The notes beneath the pieces were generated by a model. That model was not told where the DNA came from and made no database searches. It was given only the letters and a program-made list of their open reading frames with translations. The position numbers and the translations under genes were made by a program. A DNA stretch of 64,000 nt from an uncultured Chloroflexia bacterium (lineage in GTDB: Bacteria; Chloroflexota; Limnocylindria; Limnocylindrales; CSP1-4). The stretch is taken from NCBI GenBank assembly GCA_963849495.1, contig CAWKHN010000012.1:21906-85905 (forward strand), in the 5' to 3' direction. Position 1 is the first letter of the stretch; each line of letters opens with the position of its first letter. Below are positions 6,146-20,115 of the stretch, one piece after another.

Positions 6146-9022
6146 CTACCAGGTCACGAGCTTCCAGATCTCGGGCTCGAGCTCGCCGGGCCGGCCCCCG
6201 ACCTCCGCGAAGATCGCCACCGCCCGCTTGAGGTGGACCATCGCCTCGTCCGGCAGGCCGACGGCGTGGAGCTGATCGGCGAGGTTGTTCTCGACAGCTG
6301 CCTCAAGGTGGCGCTCGCCCGTCCGCCGGCACGCCTCGAGGGCTGCTTCGAGCAGGACGATGGCAGCCCTCCGGTCTCCGGAGGCTGCCTCCACCAGCGC
6401 GAGGGCATTGCGGGCCGCGATCGCCGCCCCCGCGTCCGGATCGGCTTCGGCAAGCTCGAGGCTGCGCAGGAGGACCGTTCGGGCTTCGGCAAGGTCACCG
6501 CGTTCCCTGGCGACAAGCCCGAGCACCCGGTGCGCGGCACCGGCCGCGGGATCATCGCCCGCGGCTTGAGCCAGCTCCAGCGCGCGGACCGCGAACGCCG
6601 CCGCCCGCGTGAGCTCGCCCGCCCGGTGGGCGACGACGGACCGTTCCACCAGCGCGCGGGCGAGAAGCCGGTGGTCGCCGACGGTAGACCTGTCCGCTTC
6701 GATCGCGGCGTCGAGATAGCTTGCCGCAGCGACAAGGTCGCCGCGACGTGCGTGCACCCGGCCGAGGCGGAGCTCCACCCCGGGCAGCCCTGCCTCGTCC
6801 GTGACCGCAGCGGCGGCCTCCAGTGCTGCGATCGCGCCCGCGTAGTCTCCGACCGCGGTCCGAACCTCGCCGAGGGCAAGCTGGATCCCGGCAACGTCCG
6901 GGTGCCCGAGCGCAAGCGCAGTCTCGAGGTGAGCGACGGCCTCGCGCGGGGCGTACAGCGCGCGCTCACGGAGGCCCGCCTGGCGGAAGGCTTCAGCCGC
7001 CTCAGCGTCACGTCCTGCCTCGCGCTCGTGGACCGCCACCTGGACGAGGCGGCCGGGATCGTCGCGGTGGGCCGGGTCGGCGCGCAGCAGGTCGGCCGTC
7101 CGGCGGTGGAGCAGCCGGCGGCGGGCCAGGCCGATCGCCTCGTGGGCGGCTTCGCGAAGCCTCGCGTGGGAGAAGTCGAACGCGATCCCGGGCCTCGTCC
7201 CGACCTCTCGCACGATCCCGTGTCGGACCAGCTCCTCCAGCGCCGTGAGCGTCTCATCCTCCGACCGGCCGCTGGTTCCCCGGACCAGCGAGAGGTCGAA
7301 CGAGCGGCCGATGACGGCCGCGGCGGCCAGCACCTGGCCGGCCGTCTCGCTCACCCTGGAGAGTCGTTCGCGCAGCAATGCGCGGACCGTCCTCGCGGGC
7401 CCGTCCGCGCCAGGCGATCCGGCGGCGAGCGCTTCCACGATGTACAGGGGGAGGCCTTCCGAGGCCTCGACCAGCGCGTCAACCTCGACCGGCCGCAACC
7501 CTGCGTCGGCGGCGGAGGCCGCCAGCGTCGCGACGACGTCACGGGACAGCCGGCCCAAGGTAACGGACACCACCCCGGGAAGAACCTCGATCGTCGTCGC
7601 AAACGCCGCGCCGGGCGGATCGAGATCCTCGGGCCGCCAGGCCAGCAGGAGCAGCATCGGACGTCCGGCGAGGCGCCGGGCGAGGTACGTCAGCACCTCC
7701 CGCGAGGCGTCGTCGGCCCAATGGAGGTCCTCGACGATGACGAGCCCGGGCACTGGCCCGGCGACGAGTGCGGCCAGCGAGGTCGCCAGGGCGTCCAAAA
7801 GGCGGGCGCGCGCGCCGGGGAGGTCTCCGGGTGCGTCGGGTGCGCTCCGGCGGCCGCCGGCGCGTGCCGCGCTCGCGGGGAGCGCCACGAGTCGCTCCAG
7901 CTCGCCGAGCGTCGCGTCGGGCAGGTCGCGCAGGCGGTCGAGCGCATCGTGGCGCGCAAGGCCGGCACGCAGCAGCTCGATGATCGGCCCGTAGGCGATG
8001 CCGCTCTCGGACGCGAACGCCCGCGCGCCAAGGGTCACGCCACCGGCAGCCTCCACGGCCCCGGTGACGGCCTCCGCGATCCGGGTCTTGCCGATCCCCG
8101 CCTCGCCGGTCACAGCCACGACCCGCCCATCCGTGCCCGCGGCCCGGTACGCCGACAGGATGGCCGCCAGCTGGGCATCGCGCCCGACCATCGGCAGCCG
8201 ACCGGGGGCAACCGGCGCCGAGGCCACGATGATCGAGCCGGGCTCCGGCTGCGGGATCGTCACGCTGAGGCGGCCATTGCGGATCGCCTCATAGAGCTCG
8301 GTGGTCTCGGCAAGGGGGGCCACGCCCAGCTCACGCTCCAGAACCGCGACGCACGCCCGGTACTGGCGGATCGCCCCGGCGCGATCCCCGGACCGGGCGA
8401 GGTACGTCATCAGCCGCCGATGCGCGGGCTCGTCGAGCGAGTCGAGGTCGACGAGCCGCTGCGCAGCCGCGATCGCCCCGTCGAGGTCCCCGGACGCCTC
8501 GGCAGCCGATGCCAGCCGGTCGAGCACTCCCATGACGCTCCGGTCGACGGAGACCGACCGCGTCGCCCGCCAGTCGTCGAACTCGGGGCTGTCGCGCAGG
8601 GAGAACCCGACGAGGAACGGGCCGCGGGCGAGATCCGCGGCGGCTCGCAGCGCGTCGGCATCCGACGTGGACGTGGCAACCTCGAGCACCGCGAGATCCA
8701 CCCACGCCCCGTCGAGCTCGACACTGGAGCGGTCGACGCGGAGCCACCGGTCGCCAAGCGCCGCCCGGAGGACCGACAGCGTCCGCCGGAGGGCGCCCCG
8801 GGCCGACTCGTCGTCCGACTCGGGCCACAGCATCGCGGCGAGCTCCTCGCGCGCCAACGGGCGTCCCTCCACTGCCAGCAGCGCGAGGATGGCGAGGGCC
8901 TTGCGCGTGTCCACGACCAGGGGCACGCCGTCCACTCGAACCTCGAGCGGACCGAGGATGCGGATCTGAAGCCCAGCCGGCGAAACGGGCTCCGAGGCCG
9001 TCGTGGTCACGGAGTGAGACAT
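6146..9022 (-). CDS. SARP/AfsR-like transcriptional activator: winged HTH + BTAD + STAND/AAA ATPase + TPR
   Basis: IRILGPLEV...LWPESDDESARGALRRTLS (wHTH), DLARGPFL...FDDW and DEPAHRRLM (BTAD), VGRDAQL...GEAGIGKT (Walker A), VEDLHWAD (Walker B), then TPR helices. Start placed at ATG 9022. Confidence 0.92.
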   Translation of the reverse strand: MSHSVTTTASEPVSPAGLQIRILGPLEVRVDGVPLVVDTRKALAILALLAVEGRPLAREELAAMLWPESDDESARGALRRTLSVLRAALGDRWLRVDRSSVELDGAWVDLAVLEVATSTSDADALRAAADLARGPFLVGFSLRDSPEFDDWRATRSVSVDRSVMGVLDRLASAAEASGDLDGAIAAAQRLVDLDSLDEPAHRRLMTYLARSGDRAGAIRQYRACVAVLERELGVAPLAETTELYEAIRNGRLSVTIPQPEPGSIIVASAPVAPGRLPMVGRDAQLAAILSAYRAAGTDGRVVAVTGEAGIGKTRIAEAVTGAVEAAGGVTLGARAFASESGIAYGPIIELLRAGLARHDALDRLRDLPDATLGELERLVALPASAARAGGRRSAPDAPGDLPGARARLLDALATSLAALVAGPVPGLVIVEDLHWADDASREVLTYLARRLAGRPMLLLLAWRPEDLDPPGAAFATTIEVLPGVVSVTLGRLSRDVVATLAASAADAGLRPVEVDALVEASEGLPLYIVEALAAGSPGADGPARTVRALLRERLSRVSETAGQVLAAAAVIGRSFDLSLVRGTSGRSEDETLTALEELVRHGIVREVGTRPGIAFDFSHARLREAAHEAIGLARRRLLHRRTADLLRADPAHRDDPGRLVQVAVHEREAGRDAEAAEAFRQAGLRERALYAPREAVAHLETALALGHPDVAGIQLALGEVRTAVGDYAGAIAALEAAAAVTDEAGLPGVELRLGRVHARRGDLVAAASYLDAAIEADRSTVGDHRLLARALVERSVVAHRAGELTRAAAFAVRALELAQAAGDDPAAGAAHRVLGLVARERGDLAEARTVLLRSLELAEADPDAGAAIAARNALALVEAASGDRRAAIVLLEAALEACRRTGERHLEAAVENNLADQLHAVGLPDEAMVHLKRAVAIFAEVGGRPGELEPEIWKLVTW

Positions 9023-9096: not shown

Positions 9097-9186
9097 ATGA
9101 CCGCGTCCCGAGCCGTGCCCAACGTCGCACGCGTACCCGTCCCGCTTGCCGTCGCCATCTCGGCCGTCGCGCCGGAGCGACCTTGA
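9097..9186 (+). CDS. Putative 29-aa leader peptide (MTASRAVPNVARVPVPLAVAISAVAPERP)
   Basis: ATG 8 nt after the site-1 -10. Its TGA overlaps the ATG of the next gene (TGATG). Confidence 0.4.
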   Translation: MTASRAVPNVARVPVPLAVAISAVAPERP

Positions 9187-10412
9187 TGGGCGCGACCGAC
9201 AGCCGGAGCGGCGCACGGGCGGAGGCCCGGCTTGGGCGCCTCCCGACGGCGGCTCTCTGGGCAGTGATCCTTGTCCTCGCCACGGGGGGCCTGGCCAACG
9301 TCCTGCTGCCGGAGACTTCAACTCAGAACACCGACGCGATCGCCTTCGTGCTCTCGGCGGTGATCACGCTGCTGTTCGGTAGCGTCGGCTCGCTCGTCGT
9401 CAGCCGGCAGCCGGCCAACGCTGTCGGCTGGTTGCTGTGGCTCGTGGGCGTCCTCATCGGCCTGAGCATGGCATCGACCGCGTTCACGGCGTGGAGCCTG
9501 AGCGCGTTCGATGCGCAGCTGCCCGGGACGGTAGTCGCCGCCTGGATCACCCAGTGGACGTTCAGCCCGACCCTGGTCATCACCCTGCTATTCCTGCCCC
9601 TCCTCTTCCCCGACGGCCGGCTTCCGTCGCGGCGCTGGCGCTGGGCGCTCGGGTTCGCCACCCTGGCCGCCGTCGCCGCCGGCCTGCCAGACATGCTCCA
9701 ACCCGGCCCGCTCGAGCCGACGGGGATCCCAAATCCGACCGGTTGGTCGGGTAGCCCCTCACTGCTGGACGCGCTGCGGGCCTTCAACTCGATCAGCCCG
9801 ATCCCCGCGTTCCCGGTCGTGGTCGCGTCCGCCGTCGTCCGCTTCCGGCACGGCAGCGCCATCGAGCGCCAGCAGCTCAAGTGGTTCGGGGCCACGGTCG
9901 CGCTCGCGCTGATCTCGCTCGCCGTGGCGGTGATCGCCCCCGACCCGATCGGGTACGCCGGCTTCTTCGGGGCGATGGTCGCTGTCGCCCTCCTGCCGGT
10001 CGCGATCGGGATCGCCATCCTGCGCTACCGCCTGTATGCGATCGACCGCCTCATCAGCCGGTCGATCTCGTGGGCCATCGTCAGCGTGAGCCTCACCGCC
10101 ATCTTCGTCACCGTGCTCGTCGCGCTCCAGGCGGCCCTCGCCGGGGTCACCCAGGGCGGCACCCTCGCGGTCGCCGCCTCCACCCTCGCGTCGTTCGCGC
10201 TGTTCCAGCCGTTGCGACAGCGGGTCCAGGAGATCCTCGACCGGCGCTTTGATCGTGCTCGCTACGACAGCCATCGACTCGCAGACGCCTTCGCCGAGCG
10301 CCTGCGGGACGAGGTCGACCTTGCCGAGATCTGCGACCAGATGCTCGCGACCGTGGCGACGGCCGTCCGTCCTGAGCACGGGTCGGTCTGGCTGAGAGGA
10401 GGTGGCACATGA
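9186..10412 (+). CDS. Multi-pass membrane sensor-like protein, array member 1 (ends in an N-terminal GAF fragment)
   Basis: About 9-10 hydrophobic segments. Motifs RQPANAVGW, LFPDGRLPSRRWR, ERQQLKWF, ILRYRLYAIDR and FQPLRQRVQ...DRRFDR...RLRDEVDL...VRPEHGSVWLR. Confidence 0.9.
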   Translation: MGATDSRSGARAEARLGRLPTAALWAVILVLATGGLANVLLPETSTQNTDAIAFVLSAVITLLFGSVGSLVVSRQPANAVGWLLWLVGVLIGLSMASTAFTAWSLSAFDAQLPGTVVAAWITQWTFSPTLVITLLFLPLLFPDGRLPSRRWRWALGFATLAAVAAGLPDMLQPGPLEPTGIPNPTGWSGSPSLLDALRAFNSISPIPAFPVVVASAVVRFRHGSAIERQQLKWFGATVALALISLAVAVIAPDPIGYAGFFGAMVAVALLPVAIGIAILRYRLYAIDRLISRSISWAIVSVSLTAIFVTVLVALQAALAGVTQGGTLAVAASTLASFALFQPLRQRVQEILDRRFDRARYDSHRLADAFAERLRDEVDLAEICDQMLATVATAVRPEHGSVWLRGGGT

Positions 10413-10602
10413 CCGCGCCCGCACGCAACGGGCGATCGAGTGGTTCGGGCGCGTGACCCAGCCCGACGCCGTCACCGCGCCTCGCCCGCTGCGGTCGCCC
10501 GCCCCTCTCGGCGCCCCGCTCGCGGCACTCGCCTTCCCGGTGCTCGGATGGCGCCCGTGAGGCCCCGTGCCGCCCATCGGCGAGCCGCCGGGCGGCTCCT
10601 GC

Positions 10603-10635
10603 CGTAACGTTCCCGGAACGGAGGTTTCAGAGGAT
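10603..10635 (+). promoter_or_regulatory. Direct-repeat activator box plus -10 (site 2): CGTAACG-ttccc-GGAACG ... GAGGAT
   Basis: TAACG and GAACG at 11-bp period, GAGGAT at offset 27-32, and the in-frame GTG start at offset 39. Confidence 0.65.
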
Positions 10636-10641
10636 CACCTG

Positions 10642-11952
10642 GTGAGCCAGAGCGTCCCAAGCCCCAGGCCACTCGATCCGGAGGATCGTGGCCGTGCGCC
10701 GCTCGCAAAGCCGCCCGACGGTCCTGCCGCGGTCGGCCGCGTGTCCGCGCGCACGTGGCTCGCCGGGATCGCCTGGGCCGCCTCCGCCGCGCTCGGCGGC
10801 CTCGGCATCGCCTTGCTTGCCGCGACATGGTCGACCAATGTCCCGGGCGTGTGGGGAGTTCGCGGCTTCTCGATTGCGCTCGGGCTCGCGTCGGCATCGA
10901 TCGGCGTCGTCGTGGTCGTCCGGGTGTCCGGCAATCCGATCGGTTGGCTGTTCATGACCAGCGGCCTCCTGGGCGCACTCCAAGGCTTCTGCGTGCAATA
11001 TGCGGTTGCCGGGTTGCTCGCTGCGCCGGGCAGCCTGCCCGGCCCGGAGCTGGCGGCCTGGGTGGGGGGCTGGGCCTGGATCCCCGCCATGAGCGCCATG
11101 GGGGCGTTCCTGCCGTTGGTCTTCCCGTCCGGAAGCCTGCCGTCGCCCCGCTGGCGACCCTTGGTCGCGTTCGGTGCGGTGTGCGCGAGCCTCGCCACCC
11201 TGGGCGCCATGCTCCTGCCCGGTCGGCTCGACAACTCCGCGTACCTGGACAATCCGTACGCCGTCGTCACCGGGTTCCCGGGTCAGGCGCGCTGGATCGC
11301 TTACCTGCCGCTGATCATGGCCATCGTGGTGGGCGGCGTCACGCTGGCCGTAACGTTCCGCCGATCCACCGGCGAGCGACGCCAACAGCTGAAGTGGCTC
11401 GCGTTCTCGGCCGCCATCGCCGCGGCGGCCCTGGCCCTGGTCCCGATCGGCCAGGCCGGGATCGGCGTCCTGCCCGCCTGGGCATCGAGGGGGACTGAGA
11501 TCCTGGTGGTGCTCGGTCTGCTGGGCATACCCGTCTCGGCCGGGGTCGCCGTGCTCCGCTACCGGTTGTGGGAGATCGACCGGATCGTCAGCCGAACCAT
11601 CAGCTACCTGATCGTCAGCGCCGTGCTCGCCGCTCTGTTCGCTGCCACCGTCGTTGGGCTCCAGGAGCTGCTGAGCCCGGTGACCGGGCAGAGCACGGTC
11701 GCGGTGGCAGCCGCCACGCTGCTCGCCTTCACGGTGTTCCAGCCGCTGCGTCGCCGCGTCCAGCTCACGGTTGATCGTCGCTTCAATCGGGCGCGCGTGG
11801 ATGCCCAGCGCGTCCTCGACGGGTTCGCCGCCGGGCTGCGCGACGACACGGAGCTCGACTCCCTCAACGATCACCTCGAAATGGTCGTCGCGCGATCGAT
11901 GCAGCCGCGGGCAGTCGGCATCTGGACACGGCAGGGAGGGACGGCACGGTGA
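10642..11952 (+). CDS. Multi-pass membrane sensor-like protein, array member 2
   Basis: GNPIGWLF, FPSGSLPSPRWR, RRQQLKWL, VLRYRLWEIDR and FQPLRRRVQ...MQPRAVGIWTR. GTG start 6 nt after the -10. Confidence 0.9.
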   Translation: MSQSVPSPRPLDPEDRGRAPLAKPPDGPAAVGRVSARTWLAGIAWAASAALGGLGIALLAATWSTNVPGVWGVRGFSIALGLASASIGVVVVVRVSGNPIGWLFMTSGLLGALQGFCVQYAVAGLLAAPGSLPGPELAAWVGGWAWIPAMSAMGAFLPLVFPSGSLPSPRWRPLVAFGAVCASLATLGAMLLPGRLDNSAYLDNPYAVVTGFPGQARWIAYLPLIMAIVVGGVTLAVTFRRSTGERRQQLKWLAFSAAIAAAALALVPIGQAGIGVLPAWASRGTEILVVLGLLGIPVSAGVAVLRYRLWEIDRIVSRTISYLIVSAVLAALFAATVVGLQELLSPVTGQSTVAVAAATLLAFTVFQPLRRRVQLTVDRRFNRARVDAQRVLDGFAAGLRDDTELDSLNDHLEMVVARSMQPRAVGIWTRQGGTAR

Positions 11953-12062
11953 CAGTCGTCGACCTCGACGCCGTCCGGGCGGGACTGGTGGGCGCCGTCG
12001 ATGAGATCCTGAACCCGACGGACCTGAGGTTATGGCTCCGGATGGACGGCGGAGGCCGATGA
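11949..12062 (+). CDS. 37-aa microprotein made only of the array C-terminal tail (MTVVDLDAVRAGLVGAVDEILNPTDLRLWLRMDGGGR)
   Basis: Not in the ORF track. GGAGGG RBS, GTGA overlap with the member-2 stop and ATGA overlap with the member-3 start. Matches the VDL...V...P....WLR tail. Confidence 0.7.
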   Translation: MTVVDLDAVRAGLVGAVDEILNPTDLRLWLRMDGGGR

Positions 12063-13285
12063 TGAGGATCCGCCCCGGGCTCGCGGCGCATGCCCTGGCT
12101 GTTGGCGCGCTGCCGCTCGACGTCGGATTCCTGCTGCTCCTCCTGCCGGCCCCGGCTGAGGAGCTGGCGCAGCTCGGCACGACCTCGGCCGGCGGGTTCG
12201 TGCTGGGGGCCACATTTCCGATCGTCGGCTGGATGGTCGCCTCGAAGCGGCCGGGCAACCCGATGGGCTGGATCTTCCTGGGCGTCGGGCTGTCGCAGGC
12301 GCTCGACACGTTCGCATCGCAGTACGCGATCGTCGGCCTGCAGACCGCGCCCGGATCGCTGCCTGCCGCCGATGTCATGTCCTGGATCGCCAGCTGGGTG
12401 TGGGCACCGGGCTTCGCCTTGCTCCTGACCGCGACGGTGCTCCTGTTCCCCGACGGGCGTCCACCGTCGCCCCGCTGGCGGCCCGTGCTGTGGGCCGGGG
12501 CCCTGGCCGTCGTCCTCCTGGCCATACCGATCGCGATCATCGCCTGGCCCAGCCGGGGCGTCGCCCTGCTAGGCCCCGGGCCCGGCCCGTCCGACGTGGT
12601 GGCTGGCGATCCGGTCGCCACTGCCGTGCTCGGTTTCCTCGGTGCGCTCACGAATGTCGGGCTGCTGTTGCTGCTCGCGTCGGGTGCCTGCTCGGTTGCC
12701 GGGCTCATCATCCGCTTCCGGCGTTCCGCGGGCGTCGAGCGAGCGCAGCTCACATGGTTCGCGGCGGCCGGTGTCGTCGAGATCGCGCTGATCGTGGCAT
12801 CAACGCTCGAGATCCTCCCGTGGCCGCAGTTGAACACGGCGCTCGCGATCGCCGTGTCACCGCTGCTCCCGGTGGCCGCGGCGATCGCGATCCTCCGTTA
12901 CCGGCTGTACGAGATCGACCGGATCGTCAGTCGGACGATCGGCTACCTGCTCGTGTCGGGCCTGCTCGCGGCGATGTTCGCCCTCCTGGCGGTCACGCTG
13001 CAGGGGCTGCTGGCGCCGTTCACGGAGCGCAACGGCCTGGCGGTCGCCGGATCGACGCTCGCGGTGGCAGCCCTGTTCCAGCCGGTACGCCGCCGGATCC
13101 AGCGGGCCGTGGATCGCCGCTTCAATCGCGCACGAGTGGATGCCGAACGGATCGAGGGCGAACTTACCAACCGCATCCGCGACCAGGTCGATGCCGGCGC
13201 CGTTGTCGGCCTGCTCGTCACGTCCGTCGAGCAGACGGTGCAACCGGCGTTCAGCACAGTCTGGATCCGGGAGCGGGCTCGGTGA
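12059..13285 (+). CDS. Multi-pass membrane sensor-like protein, array member 3
   Basis: RPGNPMGWIF, LFPDGRPPSPRWR, ERAQLTWF, ILRYRLYEIDR and ...VQPAFSTVWIR. Confidence 0.9.
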   Translation: MMRIRPGLAAHALAVGALPLDVGFLLLLLPAPAEELAQLGTTSAGGFVLGATFPIVGWMVASKRPGNPMGWIFLGVGLSQALDTFASQYAIVGLQTAPGSLPAADVMSWIASWVWAPGFALLLTATVLLFPDGRPPSPRWRPVLWAGALAVVLLAIPIAIIAWPSRGVALLGPGPGPSDVVAGDPVATAVLGFLGALTNVGLLLLLASGACSVAGLIIRFRRSAGVERAQLTWFAAAGVVEIALIVASTLEILPWPQLNTALAIAVSPLLPVAAAIAILRYRLYEIDRIVSRTIGYLLVSGLLAAMFALLAVTLQGLLAPFTERNGLAVAGSTLAVAALFQPVRRRIQRAVDRRFNRARVDAERIEGELTNRIRDQVDAGAVVGLLVTSVEQTVQPAFSTVWIRERAR

Positions 13286-14559
13286 CCGGTCCTGCCGGCG
13301 CGCAGCTCCAGTCGCCGACGCCTCCCAAGTTCGATCCAGCGCAACGAGGCGCAATGTCCAGTCAACGGCCGAGAGCGGGCGGCCATCCCTCGAGCCCGGT
13401 TGCGGCGGTCCTCGCTGCGGCCCTCACTGTTGGCGTCGGGACGGCCGCGATCGCGTTCCTGCTGATCCCGGCCCGCGCTGGCATCCAGGGGACCGGGCTC
13501 TCCCCCGACGTGGCAATGACGGCAATGTTCGTCCTGGTGACGCCGGTCCTCGGCGCGTTGCTGGCGGTCCGCCAGCCTGGCAACCGCATCGGCTGGCTGT
13601 TCATTGCGGTCACCTTCTTCTTCGTGATCGGATTCCTGGGCGACGGGGTTGCGCGGCACGCGGCGCCGACGCCGTTGATCGCGTCGTTCGCGGTAATCAG
13701 CAACGCGCTCGGCTACTTCGCGTTCGCCCTGCTGTTCGTGATCTTCCAGGTGTTCCCGACCGGACAGGTCCTTCCCGGTTGGGGCTGGCTGCCCGTGGGC
13801 GTGATCGCCGGCTCGGCGATGCAGGCGATCACCGGCCTGGTCGGCCCGCTGTCCTTGGTGCCGCCGATCCCAGACCTCTCGAACCCGCTGGTGCAGCCTG
13901 CCTGGCAACCGGCGCTCGACGCGATCGACCTCGTCACCGGCCTCGTGTTGGTCGTGGTGGCGGTCGGCACCATCGTCGCGCTCGCGATCCGATTCCGACG
14001 TGCCAAAGGGGTCGAGCGCCAGCAGATCAAGTGGTTCGCGTGGGCCGGGATGCTCACGGTCGGCCTGCTGGCAGCGAGCCTGCTCAGCAGTCCGTGGGGT
14101 CCAGTCTCGGGCGCGCTGTGGGCGCTCGCCCTGGCGAGTCTCGTCCTGATTCCGGTCGCCACGACCGCAGCGATCCTGCGCTACCGGCTGTGGGACATCG
14201 ACCGGATCGTCAGCCGCACCCTGTCGTACGCGATGGTGAGCGCTCTCCTGGCGACGGTCTTCGCGGCGCTCGTGCTCGGGCTTCAGGAGCTGCTGGCGTC
14301 GGTCACGGGTGCGGGCACGATCTCGATCGCCGCTTCGACCCTGGCCGTGTTTACGCTGTTCCAGCCAGCGCGGCGGCGGGTCCAGCGCATGGTCGACCGG
14401 CGGTTCGACCGCAGTCACTACGACGCCGAGCTGGCCCTGGCCCGTCTTGCCGCCCGCCTGCGGAGCGAGACCAGCTTCGACCTCGTTGGCCTCGAGGTCG
14501 AGGCTGCCATCCGTCACGCCCTGGCGCCCTCGCGGGTGGCCGTCTGGACGCGTCGATGA
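13282..14559 (+). CDS. Multi-pass membrane sensor-like protein, array member 4
   Basis: GTGA overlap (alternative ATG at 13354). RQPGNRIGWLF, FPTG, ERQQIKWF, ILRYRLWDIDR and ...LAPSRVAVWTRR. Confidence 0.9.
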   Translation: MTGPAGAQLQSPTPPKFDPAQRGAMSSQRPRAGGHPSSPVAAVLAAALTVGVGTAAIAFLLIPARAGIQGTGLSPDVAMTAMFVLVTPVLGALLAVRQPGNRIGWLFIAVTFFFVIGFLGDGVARHAAPTPLIASFAVISNALGYFAFALLFVIFQVFPTGQVLPGWGWLPVGVIAGSAMQAITGLVGPLSLVPPIPDLSNPLVQPAWQPALDAIDLVTGLVLVVVAVGTIVALAIRFRRAKGVERQQIKWFAWAGMLTVGLLAASLLSSPWGPVSGALWALALASLVLIPVATTAAILRYRLWDIDRIVSRTLSYAMVSALLATVFAALVLGLQELLASVTGAGTISIAASTLAVFTLFQPARRRVQRMVDRRFDRSHYDAELALARLAARLRSETSFDLVGLEVEAAIRHALAPSRVAVWTRR

Positions 14560-15767
14560 GGCCGGCTGGACGCCGCCCGCGGCTGCGGTTGGCGATCATC
14601 CTCGGGGTCGCGGCGGTCGCGCTCGCGTTCGTCGCCGTGGGGGTCCCGATGGGGATCGCGACACTCGATCAGTACGGGCCGACCGGGCCACTGTTCATCG
14701 TCATCTTCCCGGCGATCGTGCTGTCGCTCACGTTGGTCGGCGCATTCGTGGCGGCTCGCGTGGCCAACCCGGTCGGCTGGCTGCTGGAGCTGTCCGGGCT
14801 CGCTGCCGCGGTCGGCATCTTCGGCGGGACGTACGTGAACTACGACCACGACACGGCGGCCGGACTGCCGCTGGTGGTCCCGCTTGCCTGGCTGTCGAGC
14901 TGGACGCTCCTGCCCGCGATCGGGATGCTCCTGGTCTATGTCCCAATGCTGTTTCCGAGCGGCCAATTCCTGGGACCCCGGTGGCGGGCGCTGGGCCTGA
15001 TCGGCCTGCTGGGCGTCGCCGGGACGATCGCATCCGGCTTCACGCCGGGTCCGTTGTCGAGCACCCCGTGGATCCAGAACCCGGTCGGGATCCCGGGCGC
15101 GGGGGACGCGCTGGCGGTGGTCTCGACCCTGTCCAACCTTGCCACGCCATTCGTGTTCGGGGGTGCCGTGATCAGTGTCTTCGTTCGCTACCGGCGGGCG
15201 GACACGGTCGAGCGCCAGCAGCTCAAGTGGTTCGGCCTCGTGGCCGGCATCGCGGTGGTGGCCTTCGTCGTCTCCATCCCCAACAACGGGCCGGTCTCGG
15301 ACATCGCCTGGGAGGTCGGCCTCGTCACGCTGGTGCTGCTGCCGGTGGCGATCGGGATCGCGATCCTCCGCTACCGCCTGTGGGACATCGACCGGATCGT
15401 CAGCCGGACGATCGCTTGGGTCGTGATCACCACGATCCTGGCGGCCGTGTTCGCCGGCCTGATCGTGGGCCTGCAGGCGGCGCTGGCACCCGTGACCGCG
15501 AGCAACTCGCTCGCCGTGGCAGCCTCCACGCTGGCTGCGGCCGCCCTGTTCCAGCCCCTTCGCCGCCGGGTTCAGACGGCTGTCGATCGCCGGTTCAATC
15601 GGAGTCGCTACGATGCCGAGCGCACGGTCGGCAGCTTCGCCGAGCACCTCCGGGGCGTCACCGATCTGGCCGAGATCAGCGACGGCGCGGTCGCGGCGGT
15701 CGTTCGGTCGCTCAGCCCGAACGGTGCCGCGGTCTGGATCCGATCACACGGGGAGGGGGACGCATGA
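14556..15767 (+). CDS. Multi-pass membrane sensor-like protein, array member 5
   Basis: ATGA overlap. NPVGWLL, LFPSGQFLGPRWR, ERQQLKWF, ILRYRLWDIDR and ...LSPNGAAVWIR. Confidence 0.9.
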   Translation: MRPAGRRPRLRLAIILGVAAVALAFVAVGVPMGIATLDQYGPTGPLFIVIFPAIVLSLTLVGAFVAARVANPVGWLLELSGLAAAVGIFGGTYVNYDHDTAAGLPLVVPLAWLSSWTLLPAIGMLLVYVPMLFPSGQFLGPRWRALGLIGLLGVAGTIASGFTPGPLSSTPWIQNPVGIPGAGDALAVVSTLSNLATPFVFGGAVISVFVRYRRADTVERQQLKWFGLVAGIAVVAFVVSIPNNGPVSDIAWEVGLVTLVLLPVAIGIAILRYRLWDIDRIVSRTIAWVVITTILAAVFAGLIVGLQAALAPVTASNSLAVAASTLAAAALFQPLRRRVQTAVDRRFNRSRYDAERTVGSFAEHLRGVTDLAEISDGAVAAVVRSLSPNGAAVWIRSHGEGDA

Positions 15768-16963
15768 CGCTCCTGCGGAGCCGGCCGATGCGCGCGATCC
15801 CGTATCTCGCCGTTGCGACCCTGACCGGCGGCCTCTCGGCCTGGTTCAACCAGGACTGGTCGGGGTGGTTGATCGTCATCTCGTTCTCCGCCGTCGGCAT
15901 GTTCCTGCTCTGGCGGCGCCCCCGGGAGATCGTCGCCTGGCTCCTGGTCGGAGCCGCGATCCTGTTCCCGTGGGTTGGCAGCAGCCTGCCGGGCTCGGCA
16001 TCGCAGGTCGTCGACGGCAACGCCGAGCCGGTGGTCACGCTGTTCGCCTGGCTCAACTCCTGGTGCAGCAGCCTGTTCTTCGGGGCCTTCGTCGCGCTCG
16101 CGGCGCTGTTTCCGGCCGGCCGCTTCCCGGCGGGACGGCTTGGGATCGCCAGCCGCATCGCCGTCGCGACACCGATCGCGTTCGCCGTCGTGCTCGCGTT
16201 CGCCCCAAGCGTCACGATCACGTTCGTCGACGGGACCGCGGCGGCGGTCGGCCTGCCGCTCGCCATCTTCCCGGACTGGCCTGGTTGGGCGGTTCTCCAG
16301 GTCGGGGTCTACTTCGCCGTGCTCACGGCTCTCGCGGTCTCCGTTGTGACCCTGATCGTCCGATTCCGGCGAGCCCGCGGTTCGGAACGCGCCCAGCACA
16401 AGTGGCTGCTGGCGGCCCTGGCCGCGACCCTGGGCTCGGTGATCTTCGCCTTCGCGATGATCCTCCTGGTCGATCCCGTCGGCACCTGGATGTGGGTGGC
16501 AGCCGTGGTTGCCTATCCCACGATCCCGATCGCGATCGGGATCGCGATCCGCCGCTACCACCTGTACGACATCGACCGCGTCGTCAGCCGGACCATCGCC
16601 TATCTCGTCGTGACCGGGCTGCTCCTCGTCATCTTCGGCGGGCTCGTCGTCAGCCTCCAGGCGGCTCTTGCCGGGCTTACCCAGGGACAGACCCTCGCGG
16701 TCGCAGCCTCGACCCTGGCTGCCCTCGCCCTGTTCCAGCCGCTGCACCGTCGTGTGCAGGCGACCGTGGACCGTCGGTTCGATCGGACGAGCGTGGATGC
16801 GCAGCGAACCATTGACGGCTTTGCCGGGCAGCTTCGAGACGAGGTCGATCTCGCGACGCTGCGCGGCGTCCTGGTCGCGACCGCGGATTCGGCCGTCCGC
16901 CCGGACGGGGTGGCCCTCTGGGTTCGTAACGTCTCGAAGGCTCGATCATCCGTGGTTTCGTAA
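15764..16963 (+). CDS. Multi-pass membrane sensor-like protein, array member 6
   Basis: ATGA overlap with GGAGGGGG RBS. LFPAGRFP, ERAQHKWL, IRRYHLYDIDR and QLRDEVDL...VRPDGVALWVR. Confidence 0.9.
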   Translation: MTLLRSRPMRAIPYLAVATLTGGLSAWFNQDWSGWLIVISFSAVGMFLLWRRPREIVAWLLVGAAILFPWVGSSLPGSASQVVDGNAEPVVTLFAWLNSWCSSLFFGAFVALAALFPAGRFPAGRLGIASRIAVATPIAFAVVLAFAPSVTITFVDGTAAAVGLPLAIFPDWPGWAVLQVGVYFAVLTALAVSVVTLIVRFRRARGSERAQHKWLLAALAATLGSVIFAFAMILLVDPVGTWMWVAAVVAYPTIPIAIGIAIRRYHLYDIDRVVSRTIAYLVVTGLLLVIFGGLVVSLQAALAGLTQGQTLAVAASTLAALALFQPLHRRVQATVDRRFDRTSVDAQRTIDGFAGQLRDEVDLATLRGVLVATADSAVRPDGVALWVRNVSKARSSVVS

Positions 16964-16991
16964 CGATGTCCGGACACGCACGCATGAGGAT
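16959..16991 (+). promoter_or_regulatory. Direct-repeat activator box plus -10 (site 3): CGTAACG-atgtc-CGGACA ... GAGGAT
   Basis: GAGGAT at offset 27-32 and ATG at offset 39, as at site 2. An extra CGTAACG lies at 16925. The TAA stop of member 6 lies inside the motif. Confidence 0.65.
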
Positions 16992-16997
16992 CTGGTC

Positions 16998-18641
16998 ATG
17001 ACAGCACTGACCCGTCCATTCCGGCGCCTGCGCGGACGCCAGGACGTCCCATCGGTCGACGCGGCCGTCGCCGAACCGGCGCCTGCCACGGAGGAGTCGT
17101 CCGGTATTGCGATCGACATTCCGCATTCGGACCCGCTGTTCGCATACCTCCAGTCGGCACCGGGGCCGGTGGACCTCACGAAGCTCGAGCTCGCGTCCGA
17201 GGTGCTCGAGCAGCTTCGTGAGGCCGGCGTGGCCCTCGTGGTGCCGCTGGTCACCCAGGGCGAGCTGATCGGCACCCTGAACCTCGGTCCACGGCTTTCC
17301 GAGCAGGACTACTCGACGGACGACCGACGGCTGCTGGCCACGCTTGCCGCCCAGGCTGCGCCCGCGATCCGCGTCGCCCAGCTCGTCCGTGAGCAGGCGG
17401 CGGAGGCGGCTGAACGCGAGCGGTACGAGCAGGAGCTGAAGGTCGCGCAGCTGATCCAGCAGCAGTTCCTGCCGCACGAGCTGCCGAACCTCCCCGAGTG
17501 GCAGATCGCGGCCTACTACGGCCCGGCGCGTGTCGTGGGCGGCGACTTCTACGACTTCATCGACCTCGGCGAGGGCCGGATCGGCGTGGTCGTCGGCGAT
17601 GTCACCGACAAGGGGGTCCCTGCCGCCCTGGTCATGGCCCGCACCCATTCGATCATGCGCGCCGAGGCACCGCGGCTCATCGATCCGGGCAAGGTCCTCG
17701 CACGCGCCAACGAGCTGCTGGTGCCGGAGATGCCGCCGCGGATGTTCGTGACCTGCCTCTACGGCGTGCTCGAGCCCGCGACCGGCCGGTTCAGGTTCGC
17801 CAACGCCGGCCACAACCTGCCCTATGTCCGGACCGCAGACGGCGTGATCGAGCTGCGGGCGACCGGGCTGCCGCTCGGCCTGCTGCCGGAGATCAGCTAC
17901 GAGGAAACCGTGGGAACGATCGCTGCCGGCGACGCGATGCTGCTGTACTCGGACGGCGTCGTCGAGCAGCACGGGCCGGGGCGCGAGATGTACGGGTTCC
18001 CCCGGCTCCGCGAGGCGATGGCCACCAACGAAGCCGGCAGCCGCTTGCTGGATCGCCTGCTCGAGGGCCTGCACGCGTTCACCGGCGCAAGCTGGGAGCA
18101 GGAGGACGACATCACGCTCGTCACGCTGCGCCGAGCGGCGGCGGTGGCCGGGGACTGGTCCGAGGATCGGCCGGAGGTCGAGCTCACCCGTGATGATGCG
18201 CCAGCGGTCGACGATGGCGAGGTTTTGGCCTCGTTTACCATCCAGGGCGCGATCGGCAACGAGCGCGAGGCGATGGAGCGAGTCGCGGTGGCCGTGGCCC
18301 CCCTCGGTCTGGCCGAGTCGCGCCTGGAGCGCCTGAAGACTGCCGTCGCCGAAGCCGTCATGAACGCGATCGAGTACGGATCCCAGGGGAATCCCGACGT
18401 CCCGGTGGACGTGCGGGTCGACGCGGATGCCGGGGAGATCCGGATCCAGGTGACGGATCGCGCGCTGTCGGGCCCCGTGCCGGACGTGGAGGCGCCGGAT
18501 CTCGACGCCAAGCTCGAGGGTCGCCAGAAGCCGCGCGGCTGGGGGCTGTTCCTCATCCGCCACATGGTCGACGGGATGGATGTCCACGCCGCCGACGGTC
18601 TGCAGACCGTGACCCTCACCCTCGCCCGGGACGGGCGCTGA
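16998..18641 (+). CDS. Partial GAF + SpoIIE/RsbU-type PP2C phosphatase + RsbW-like HATPase fusion
   Basis: GAF C-terminal part (VALVVPLVTQGELIGTLNLGPR...DDRRLLATLAAQAA) and a coiled coil. PP2C motifs VGGDFYD, GDVTDKG, MFVT, NAGH, YSDG and DDIT. HATPase motifs EAVMNAIEYG and RGWGLFLI. Confidence 0.92.
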   Translation: MTALTRPFRRLRGRQDVPSVDAAVAEPAPATEESSGIAIDIPHSDPLFAYLQSAPGPVDLTKLELASEVLEQLREAGVALVVPLVTQGELIGTLNLGPRLSEQDYSTDDRRLLATLAAQAAPAIRVAQLVREQAAEAAERERYEQELKVAQLIQQQFLPHELPNLPEWQIAAYYGPARVVGGDFYDFIDLGEGRIGVVVGDVTDKGVPAALVMARTHSIMRAEAPRLIDPGKVLARANELLVPEMPPRMFVTCLYGVLEPATGRFRFANAGHNLPYVRTADGVIELRATGLPLGLLPEISYEETVGTIAAGDAMLLYSDGVVEQHGPGREMYGFPRLREAMATNEAGSRLLDRLLEGLHAFTGASWEQEDDITLVTLRRAAAVAGDWSEDRPEVELTRDDAPAVDDGEVLASFTIQGAIGNEREAMERVAVAVAPLGLAESRLERLKTAVAEAVMNAIEYGSQGNPDVPVDVRVDADAGEIRIQVTDRALSGPVPDVEAPDLDAKLEGRQKPRGWGLFLIRHMVDGMDVHAADGLQTVTLTLARDGR

Positions 18642-18644
18642 CCG

Positions 18645-19019
18645 ATGGAGGTAGCCATGAACGAGCGGCGACTCGACATCGAGGTGATCACCTCGATCCC
18701 CGGGGAGGCTCGGCTTGCGATGCGCGGTGACGTCGACATCGCGGCCGACGAGACCCTGGCCTCGGCCTACAAGGCCGCGGCATCGGCCGGCGCCACCCGC
18801 GTCGTCCTCGACTTCACCACCGTCGACTACATCAACTCGACCGGCATCGCTCTGATCGTCCGCCTCCTCGCCGAGGCCCGTCGCGATCATCGCGACGTCA
18901 TCGCGGTCGGTCTGTCCGATCACTACCGGGAGATCTTCCGGATCACCCGCCTGTCCGACTACCTCACCATCGCCGACGGCGTTTCGGCAGGCAGCGTTCC
19001 AGAGGAGGGCAACCGATGA
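18645..19019 (+). CDS. STAS-domain anti-sigma-factor antagonist 1
   Basis: GDVD...VVLDFTTVDYINSTGIALI...IFRITRL. Phosphorylatable Ser present. ATG 18657 is an alternative start. Confidence 0.9.
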   Translation: MEVAMNERRLDIEVITSIPGEARLAMRGDVDIAADETLASAYKAAASAGATRVVLDFTTVDYINSTGIALIVRLLAEARRDHRDVIAVGLSDHYREIFRITRLSDYLTIADGVSAGSVPEEGNR

Positions 19020-19360
19020 CCGATACCATGATCGAGGTCGGCCAGCACGGCGACGCAACGATCCTGCGCATCCACGGGGACATCACGGGGGGCAGCGAGC
19101 CAGCGCTGATGGACGCCTACAGCCAGGCTGGGTCGGCTCGGTCCGTCGTGCTCGACTTCGGCGATCTCGAGTACATGAACAGCGGTGGGATCGGGCTGCT
19201 GGTGACACTGCTGGTGCGCACGCAGCGAGCCGGCCAGAAGCTGCTCGCGGTCGGCCTGACCGAGCACTACCGCCAGATCCTGGCCCTGACGCGCCTCGAC
19301 GAGGCGATCTCCATCCACGACGACGAGCCGGCGGCACTGGCCGCGGCCGCCTCCACCTGA
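19016..19360 (+). CDS. STAS-domain anti-sigma-factor antagonist 2
   Basis: VVLDFGDLEYMNSGGIGLLV...ILALTRLD. ATGA overlap. Confidence 0.9.
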   Translation: MTDTMIEVGQHGDATILRIHGDITGGSEPALMDAYSQAGSARSVVLDFGDLEYMNSGGIGLLVTLLVRTQRAGQKLLAVGLTEHYRQILALTRLDEAISIHDDEPAALAAAAST

Positions 19361-19374
19361 ACGGAGCGTTCCCC

Positions 19375-20115
19375 ATGACCACCCAGCCTCGCACTCCCCG
19401 CGACAAGGAGTCCTGGGCACGTCCCGTTGACCGGCTGTCCACGACCGCGAAGACCGGCGGCATGGACACCGTCACCGGCAAGCGCGTCTCGGGCCCGATC
19501 CAGGGCTTCGGGCAGATGTGGCAGAAGACGTTCAAGGTGAGGCTCGACGGCGTCGACCTCGACCCGGAGGCGGTCATCGCGCACTGGAAGGCCGGCTTCC
19601 CGACCTTCTGGCCCAAGGGAGCCGCGTTCTACGCCCCCCTGGCGGGCATTACGCCCGGCGAGGTCGCGCTGCTCGAGGTGGCACCCGTGCCCGGTTCGCC
19701 TGTGAAGATGTCGACCGGCGTGCTGGTGATCTACGCTGACAACGAGTCGTTCACGTTCATGACGCCCGAGGGTCACGCACTGTCCGCATGGATCACCTTC
19801 TCCGCCTACCGGGACGGCGACGTCACCGTCGCCCAGGCCCAGGCCCTCGAGCGGACGAGCGATCCGTTCATCGAGCTCAGCTACATGTTTGGCGCAAACC
19901 GCTCGAACGACCGATTCTGGGAGCGGACCCTGGAGAACCTCGCTGTGTCGCTGGGTGTCGCGGCGCCGGTCATCGAGGCCCAGAAGGTGTGCGTGGACAG
20001 GCGGCGCCAGTGGCGGTACGTCCGCAACCTGCGGCACAGCGCGGCGGTGAACATGGCGATCGGCACCGTCACTGCGCCGGCGCGCTGGATGCGTCGGCGG
20101 CGGGCCACCGGCTGA
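19375..20115 (+). CDS. Hypothetical protein (possibly DUF1990/SRPBCC-like)
   Basis: SFTFMTPEGH..S.WITF segment resembles DUF1990-like proteins. Co-oriented in the operon. Confidence 0.75.
   Translation: MTTQPRTPRDKESWARPVDRLSTTAKTGGMDTVTGKRVSGPIQGFGQMWQKTFKVRLDGVDLDPEAVIAHWKAGFPTFWPKGAAFYAPLAGITPGEVALLEVAPVPGSPVKMSTGVLVIYADNESFTFMTPEGHALSAWITFSAYRDGDVTVAQAQALERTSDPFIELSYMFGANRSNDRFWERTLENLAVSLGVAAPVIEAQKVCVDRRRQWRYVRNLRHSAAVNMAIGTVTAPARWMRRRRATG

Follow-up and report, generated by a model that had tools for sequence, protein, structure and literature searches.

Nine consecutive genes on the forward strand at positions 9183-19360 of a 64,000-nucleotide stretch of DNA (the window) from an uncultured Chloroflexia bacterium probably encode a partner-switching module whose GAF sensor domain is divided between the tails of several membrane receptors and one shared enzyme. 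The genes comprise six membrane paralogues (G1-G6), followed by the gene encoding the enzyme (G7) and two STAS genes (G8 and G9). Past its last transmembrane helix and a juxtamembrane helix, each receptor, judging by homology, stops after the opening helix and strand of a GAF domain, and the soluble G7 starts with the remaining GAF strands and helices. The window is part of contig C12 of a 3.8-Mb genome (27 contigs, 96.7% complete) and has a G+C content of about 71%; close relatives of its proteins carry labels such as 'Candidatus Limnocylindrales bacterium' (Chloroflexota).

Receptor tails and the truncated GAF domain of G7

The genes G1-G6 encode paralogous polytopic membrane proteins of 399 to at most 461 residues. 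G1 (9183 or 9186 to 10412) encodes a protein of 409 residues with its tail at 10203-10409, as delimited by its open reading frame (ORF), its translation and the alignment of its tail. G2 (putatively 10567-11952; tail at 11737-11949) has an uncertain start and at most 461 residues, relatives aligning only from about residue 50 of its ORF. G3 (12032-13285; tail at 13076-13282) encodes 417 residues, and G4, which starts at 13282 (GTG) or 13354 (ATG) and ends at 14559 (tail at 14359-14556), encodes 401 residues from the ATG. G5 (14556-15767; tail at 15549-15764) and G6 (15764-16963; tail at 16733-16960) encode 403 and 399 residues, respectively, and each overlaps the preceding gene by ATGA. The preliminary description called these genes mostly translationally coupled. 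Four-base start/stop overlaps are present at G4/G5 and G5/G6, as well as at G8/G9, and G3/G4 overlap in this way only if translation of G4 begins with the GTG at 13282; the coupling therefore stands for these pairs, but not for G1/G2 and G2/G3, which are separated by gaps, or for G6/G7, where the gap is 34 bases.

All six receptors carry the conserved end that had been described. The pattern FQPxRRRxQxxVDRRFxRxRxD is followed by a D-L-helix, a proline, five residues, W-x-R and a stop codon, which lies 66-76 residues past the F of the motif in 6/6 proteins. Among 76 aligned tails from the window and 19 related loci, F1, P3, Q9, R14, F16, R18 and W63 are invariant, and R5, R7, V12, D13, R15, D22, R35, P57 and R65 are conserved in at least 90%. 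A further 79 loci were collected with the receptor alignment. These contain 183 complete motif-bearing ORFs, 180 of which stop 60-94 residues past the motif (median 70); the three exceptions extend 180, 262 and 469 residues past it. Since the stop is shared by 180/183 ORFs, the tail ending is real and a property of the family. The receptors were also said to have no kinase or other output domain, and a Pfam scan of all six gave nothing above cut-off, as did an NCBIfam scan of G1 and G6, the two that were scanned.

The gene G7 (16998-18641, forward strand) encodes a protein of 547 residues composed of a leader (residues 1-33), a partial GAF domain, a linker helix, a PP2C domain and a HATPase_c_2 domain. 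None of three Pfam GAF models is matched whole in this chain: PF01590 is matched at profile positions 64-133 of 133 only, PF13492 at 48-127 of 129 only and PF13185 at 91-135 of 136 only. The C-terminal half to two-thirds of the models thus falls on residues 33-124 (17094-17369), and the protein begins mid-domain, as the preliminary description had proposed. Residues 25-185, the half-GAF stretch, are 83-93% identical across the best 120 database relatives. Residues 192-379 (17571-18134) match SpoIIE/PP2C (PF07228; E 2.1e-50, profile positions 2-191 of 192), and D183, D186, D201, D319, D370 and D371, which we take to be the PP2C metal-binding ligands, are at least 90% conserved in 50 homologues. 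Residues 423-541 (18264-18620) match HATPase_c_2 (PF13581; E 7e-21). The NCBIfam RsbW and SpoIIAB models score far below cut-off, and from its Pfam match the ATPase domain is classed as an RsbW-like putative kinase/binding domain. G6 and G7 weakly match consecutive stretches of the NCBIfam PrsK profile, at positions 130-350 and 404-469, respectively.

A census of the genome gave 32 GAF matches, four of them partial, including that of G7. Of the two partial matches inspected, those of G7 and C15:70453, only G7 was found to be cleanly truncated at the N-terminus; the other two are at C11:416315 (profile positions 43-132) and C10:207739 (82-133). The partial match at C15:70453 was rejected as a second acceptor, because on reading its translation it lies in a multi-frame REC-PAS-GAF-PAS-EAL gene. 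This gene (G000:C15:67999-72211, reverse strand) appears to be spread over several frames and is either frameshifted or misassembled. Two further candidate acceptors were also rejected: the GAF protein most similar to G7, a REC-GAF-HisKA-HATPase protein on C10, has a complete GAF domain, and the second PP2C protein of the genome, on C15, has none.

Residues 1-190 of G7 were searched against 1.84 billion representatives, and two types of relatives were obtained, namely short proteins starting where G7 starts and proteins of 750-950 residues that match from residue 400-570. Seven of the long relatives were read (P0163, P0164, P0170, P0172, P0178, P0180 and P0187). All seven contain the same membrane module, juxtamembrane motif and tail, then a variable linker of about 10-75 residues, a region 57-63% identical to G7 from residues 29-41 to 188-190, and a PP2C domain, which in P0178 is followed by HATPase_c_2 as well. 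Fused homologues, with a tail-like segment and a G7-like half-GAF in one chain, were therefore found where they had been sought. In three of four single-chain proteins tested (P0163, P0172 and P0187), Pfam GAF is matched from profile positions 1-3 to 132-133, the match beginning exactly at the 'DL..L' helix, the counterpart of the final 35 tail residues. In the fourth, P0178, it is matched from position 54 only. By the first three proteins, the tail and the G7 N-terminus together form one complete GAF domain. Because the match is full-length and starts in the tail, the gene break must interrupt a single GAF domain within a variable loop. Judging from these homologues, this is the loop that follows the first GAF strand, and the tail and the N-terminus of G7 are the two parts of the domain. 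In more distant single-chain proteins (P0006, P0007 and P0008), this membrane module and its tail are joined to GAF-histidine kinases. Other database entries, from the clade of the window, were rejected as natural fusions. In P0131, P0021 and P0004 the reading frame of the tail is lost ahead of the junction, and the ORF continues through intergenic DNA; P0005 consists of two receptor modules in tandem.

Co-occurrence, selection and receptor cassettes

Orthologues of G7 (E ≤ 1e-160) were detected in 22 of 36 same-genus genomes and receptor matches in 23 of the same 36. Receptor and G7 occur together in 22 genomes, a receptor alone in one (genome G011; one copy, 86% complete), G7 alone in none and neither in 13, counts that are not independent, the genomes being related, and that physical linkage alone would yield through joint gain and loss. 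Eighteen of the 22 orthologues cover G7 residues 1 to 544-547 at 70-89% identity and have at most a few dozen open codons upstream; the other four are partial. Neither G7 nor receptor matches were found in 24 genomes of 1.0-1.4 Mb from a sister family (0/24). All of the fetched related loci (20/20) have receptor genes immediately 5' of G7-STAS-STAS and in the same orientation, and the number of receptor genes ranges from one full copy and a fragment up to about ten or more.

The 79 receptor-centred loci, from named metagenome-assembled genomes (MAGs), are mostly from Limnocylindria, with a few labelled Acidimicrobiia, Acidobacteriota, Cellulomonas and Gemmatimonadota. A G7-like gene and STAS genes were found within 7 kb in 49 of these loci. 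Of five checked genomes behind the loci labelled as other than Chloroflexota, four encode a G7-like protein of about 540 residues, and in the fifth, labelled Gemmatimonadota, no such gene was found at E ≤ 1e-20. A second phylum, that of one of these genomes, which is labelled Acidimicrobiia (a class of Actinomycetota), was then represented by 251 genomes, for which a strong receptor match was set at E ≤ 1e-40, a G7-like gene at E ≤ 1e-60 and a receptor match at E ≤ 1e-15. Strong receptor matches were found in 38 genomes and a G7-like gene in 42. All but one of the strong-receptor genomes (37/38, the exception being genome G276) also have a G7-like gene, and 42/42 G7-positive genomes have a receptor match; when nine unpublished genomes are removed, the counts become 31/32 and 35/35. 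In the published loci of this phylum, 24/25 ORFs that carry the motif end no more than 100 residues past it. The same split was thus found both in the related loci and in a second phylum, and receptors nearly always co-occur with G7, contrary to the possibility raised earlier that such arrays usually stand in genomes without a truncated partner.

Two variants were observed among these genomes. A shorter G7-like form of about 396 residues, consisting of the half-GAF and PP2C without the ATPase domain, is present in the second-phylum genomes G218, G257, G305 and G192. Genome G063 (locus L124) has a split G7-like gene and, in addition, an 821-residue GAF and PP2C gene in which these domains follow about 490 N-terminal residues.

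The ratios of nonsynonymous to synonymous substitution rates (dN/dS) were computed against orthologues of one related species (locus L021), in which the G3 orthologue is 92% identical. The values are 0.24 for G3 and 0.14 for its tail, 0.19 for G5 and 0.35 for its tail, 0.14 for G7 and 0.145 for G7 residues 34-160, and 0.22 for G8. These two receptors, their tails and G7 are under purifying selection. The preliminary description had argued from six independent stops against a frameshift. That argument fails by itself, because the stops are copies of an already split gene and are not independent; it is the retention of the split in two phyla, together with the purifying selection, that speaks against a frameshift. 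In a quick unrooted tree of residues 34-380, the window G7 lies in an all-split clade of 15 rows (Shimodaira-Hasegawa-like approximate likelihood ratio test, SH-aLRT, 95), whose nearest neighbours are the single-chain proteins P0163, P0164 and P0170. A few other short rows are scattered among the single-chain forms and may be gene fragments. The tree fits, but does not prove, derivation of the split from a fused ancestor.

The receptor genes behave as cassettes that are gained and lost. In DNA contigs of two metagenome runs, position 13287 is joined to 14539 with one extra letter, and it is therefore precisely the G4 unit that related strains lack; where a joint between paralogous positions had a side shorter than 30 letters, it was excluded as possibly derived from other organisms or repeats. 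The synonymous divergence (dS) from one related species is 0.18 for both G3 and G5, but 0.46 for G7 and 0.81 for G8, and the low receptor values hint that receptor cassettes were recently exchanged or underwent gene conversion. Contigs from one RNA library, 90-96% alike and covering pieces of G4-G9, were rejected as evidence of expression, because DNA may be present in the library and contigs cannot show transcripts.

Predicted interface and competing explanations

An AlphaFold2 model of G7 alone (50-row alignment) has a mean predicted local distance difference test value (pLDDT) of 85.8, with residues 1-29 and 31-33 below 50. Its GAF part consists of helices 46-53 and 68-75, a hairpin (80-86/89-96) and a long helix (107-157) running into PP2C. 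The N-terminus of the enzyme is therefore modelled as an incomplete fold with one hairpin and helices, and not as a complete GAF domain by itself. In the model of G6 alone (mean pLDDT 85.9), about ten helices form a bundle that carries an external hairpin; the tail contains helices 310-340, 346-359 and 363-378, and its final stretch, 379-399, with the P-x5-W-x-R pattern, is without secondary structure.

The complex of G7 residues 1-190 with the G6 tail was predicted with a score of 0.63 (runs 0.63, 0.62 and 0.64), and the best of three controls scored 0.00. The score mark was reached by 58/80 solved complexes and 2/110 mismatched pairs, in a calibration that holds only roughly here, as the complex run used alignments made for this analysis. 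The runs share at least 77% of contacts, and the partner pLDDT is at least 51. Tail residues 54-65 are placed antiparallel to G7 90-97, tail helix 30-51 is packed on G7 109-131, and G7 36-41 also contacts the tail. The tail strand, which pairs with 90-97 and contacts 36-41, thus sits between two G7 strands in the model. The first strand of a GAF domain lies between two others in the sheet order. The columns of the tails at the predicted interface are more conserved than the others (1.80 versus 2.31 bits, positions 23-68). The proposed pairing of tail and enzyme N-terminus passes the controls in a predicted GAF-like arrangement of strand and helix, and the prediction supports, rather than shows, binding of the tail to G7. 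With homology and co-occurrence, it backs the earlier claim that the GAF fold is divided between receptor tails and enzyme.

The N-terminal peptide of G7 lies outside the predicted interface of the tested fragment. Its residues 1-13 (16998-17036), MTALTRPFRRLRG, are conserved among the orthologues compared; residues 14-33 are variable. The linkers of the single-chain relatives contain no MTALTRPFRRLRG-like peptide. The peptide may be an extra docking element for receptors.

In the divided-domain module, the receptor tail would insert its strand between two G7 strands and pack its helix on the last GAF helix of G7, and the completed fold would tie G7 to that receptor at the membrane. A signal sensed in the membrane would travel as a conformational change in the receptor's final helix and juxtamembrane helix, and from there by way of the completed GAF domain to the long linker helix of G7. 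This would alter the balance between the PP2C phosphatase and the RsbW-like kinase/binding domain in their action on G8 and G9. Different receptors would give one output enzyme different input specificities, and new specificities would arise by duplication of a 1.2-kb receptor gene alone. Because the tail strand would lie inside the sheet, a stable assembly formed at folding is expected rather than rapid exchange; the modelled mid-sheet position suggests a co-folded assembly more than a quick plug-in. The receptors would partition the G7 pool, and competition or combinatorial input among them is possible. A wider proposal, for which the chances seem slightly less than even, is that this is a widespread design, present at least in Limnocylindria (Chloroflexota) and Acidimicrobiia (Actinomycetota), in which interchangeable receptors each contribute the central GAF strand and the first GAF helix to one shared bifunctional phosphatase/kinase, cassettes are gained, lost and recombined, and receptors compete for or partition a fixed pool.

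The same predicted interface would also serve a scheme of sequestration, in which the tails anchor G7 in an inactive or active state and a stimulus releases G7 or alters receptor abundance, the receptors being competing sinks. Receptor copy number varies and G7 is single, so that stoichiometry could matter, and sequestration and release of RsbT is an established precedent in partner switching (PMC12143880). However, release would be costly with the tail strand predicted in the middle of the sheet, and the domain order is unchanged in the single-chain relatives, an indication that the signal is transmitted inside one assembly. Sequestration is considered unlikely.

Several observations weigh against the divided-domain module itself. 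When a profile of the 76 tails was compared with PDB sequences, the only two rows, both for glutamate N-acetyltransferase, were at chance level (E 2.6), and single tails against Pfam gave scattered weak matches and no GAF match. The GAF assignment of the tails rests on the single-chain relatives, because the tails alone give no GAF match, as expected for a segment of about 35 residues. The partner pLDDT in the complex is modest (52-64), the calibration of its score is rough, and the pass may reflect likeness to solved GAF folds, since each chain contributes half of a fold that is well known. Genomes G011 and G276 have a receptor match and no detected G7, and in 30/79 receptor-centred loci no G7-like gene was found within 7 kb. 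The window genome has nine copies of the receptor module, six in the array and one each on contigs C8, C15 and C10. Two of the unlinked copies are tail-bearing and would have to act in trans or otherwise. The C8 copy (G000:C8:36042-37289) lies among unrelated genes, and the C15 copy (G000:C15:~136700-138003) is flanked by putative branched-chain keto-acid dehydrogenase subunit genes, from their translations. The C10 copy (G000:C10:255598-257151) has no tail and, on its translation, is fused to a putative class III cyclase domain. Finally, no sigma factor or other target of the STAS and ATPase proteins was found in the conserved neighbourhood, the area to which the search for sigma factors was confined.

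The absence of a GAF match in the tails alone, the unlinked tail-bearing copies and the loci without a nearby G7 would also be accounted for if there were no complementation in trans. The receptors would then act alone or with another partner, with the tail as a dimerisation or stabilising element, the half-GAF as a degenerate linker or dimerisation module and the linkage as a remnant of a broken fusion gene. The occurrence of the same membrane module with other outputs, a cyclase in this genome and histidine kinases elsewhere, also fits such an explanation. It is rather improbable, however, in view of the purifying selection on both tail and half-GAF, the high identity of the half-GAF among the 120 relatives listed, the near-perfect phyletic co-occurrence in two phyla, the complex prediction that passes its controls and the models in which G7 and receptor are each incomplete alone. 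That the stops arose through faulty assembly or sequencing, or that the array is a set of pseudogenes of a frameshifted fusion gene, is hardly credible, for although P0131, P0021 and P0004 look fused and gene callers sometimes read through, these entries lose the tail frame before the junction, the stop point is the same in 180/183 ORFs and in 24/25 in the second phylum, dN/dS is well below 1, and 18 of the 22 same-genus genomes with an orthologue have G7 from residue 1 to 544-547.

Neighbouring genes, known systems and significance

The genes G8 (18645-19019) and G9 (19016-19360, overlapping G8 by ATGA), both on the forward strand, encode STAS proteins resembling anti-sigma-factor antagonists. 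They match PF01740 with E values of 3.3e-12 and 8e-14 and TIGR00377 with 56.1 and 60.7 bits (cut-off 53.45), respectively. Both proteins contain a serine in a D/N-S-x-G stretch, presumably that of the STAS motif. A gene encoding a 246-residue protein (19375-20115, forward strand) lies directly 3' of the STAS genes and follows G9 in 20/20 related loci; it is also present in many distant loci of both phyla. This protein has no sequence match in Pfam, NCBIfam or PDB and is DUF1990-like by Atlas features only; it may be an output or accessory of the module. An FAD oxidoreductase is a conserved neighbour in 20/20 related loci. A divergent gene (6149-8989, reverse strand) upstream of the array encodes a BTAD-AAA_16-TPR regulator (AfsR/SARP-like, 947 residues) that is syntenic in 19/20 related loci, and the array lies between this regulator and G7.

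A 16-base motif, TTCGTAACGATGTCCG (16957-16972, forward strand), lies about 25 bases 5' of the G7 start, is followed by GAGGAT and overlaps the stop codon of G6 in the window. Its columns are at least 80% conserved in 19 aligned species, and the surrounding intergenic DNA is not conserved. One further genomic copy with two mismatches (G000:C9:218281, reverse strand) lies 5' of a putative ferric-reductase-like gene. The motif may serve as a promoter or operator through which G7 is controlled separately.

The membrane part of the receptors (G6 model) gave nothing at E ≤ 0.001 when compared with PDB by Foldseek, and it has a generic helical-bundle resemblance to G-protein-coupled receptors (GPCRs; TM about 0.3). 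No Pfam match above cut-off to named membrane sensor modules such as HisKA_7TM (PF16927) was obtained. The nearest named Atlas cluster scores 0.84, which is a lead only, and 30 Atlas clusters of this receptor family have no Pfam family.

The closest known proteins are the uncharacterised single-chain membrane-GAF-PP2C(-HATPase) proteins P0163, P0172, P0178 and P0187, which share the membrane module, juxtamembrane motif, GAF domain and PP2C domain, P0178 having HATPase_c_2 as well. They are single polypeptides with one receptor per enzyme, whereas in the window the gene break follows the first GAF strand, in the loop, and the receptor half is present in several copies. Incomplete beta-sheets completed by a strand of another polypeptide are known from donor-strand complementation in chaperone-usher pili, but there the process serves the assembly of an extracellular fibre, without signalling and without a GAF fold. 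Several paralogous sensors are coupled to one output in chemoreceptor arrays, which share CheA, and in the stressosome with its RsbR paralogues. These resemble the many-to-one arrangement of the array, but their coupling is by docking of complete domains and not by division of one. The RsbR paralogues of the stressosome are named in PMC11821858.

In Bacillus subtilis, RsbT binds the N-terminal domain and linker of RsbU, and a crossing coiled coil then activates the PP2C dimer, whose output in the general stress response is dephosphorylation of a STAS protein (PMC12143880). Similar linkers are predicted there for GAF- and PAS-PP2C proteins, including Rv1364c, which has an anti-sigma kinase domain (PMC12143880). 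The likeness to the window lies in a separate partner acting on the N-terminal region of the phosphatase and in the comparable long linker helix (107-157) of G7. However, RsbT is a folded kinase docking on a complete N-domain, and in the divided-domain module the tail of a membrane protein is predicted to supply missing elements of a fold; G7 has no RsbU N-domain by Pfam. The linker signalling proposed for G7 is borrowed from the RsbU linker model. HltA of cyanobacteria is a characterised GAF-PP2C protein (PMC9430166). Together with Rv1364c of M. tuberculosis, OsaC of S. coelicolor and RsbZ of C. difficile, it combines a PAS or GAF sensor with PP2C, in some cases with anti-sigma and STAS domains, and Rv1364c resembles G7 in having sensor, PP2C and anti-sigma kinase domain in one chain. 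In the portions of the sources available, these four proteins have complete sensor domains in cis and no separate receptor array is described (PMC12143880, PMC9430166).

In the literature searched, supplements aside, no description was found of a split, partial or trans-completed GAF domain or of this receptor family, and a search on fold complementation in bacterial sensors yielded nothing on sensor domains. Sensor-GAF-PP2C proteins and partner-switching cascades are known, and all parts of the module are of known kinds. What would be new is a sensor fold shared out between one enzyme gene and a receptor gene present in several copies, an arrangement kept in two phyla. The findings annotate a large family of about 400-residue 'hypothetical' membrane proteins. 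If the divided-domain module is true, its pair of a 76-residue tail and a 190-residue fragment would be small enough for following a signal from a membrane helix via GAF to the PP2C linker, and it would provide a natural, evolution-tested GAF split point that engineers of split sensors could use. On the wider proposal, and as far as the literature was searched, no earlier natural example would be known in which complementation of a fold multiplexes sensory input. The module would be a new way of wiring many inputs to one output, and it would explain how sensory range can grow by duplication of the receptor half alone.

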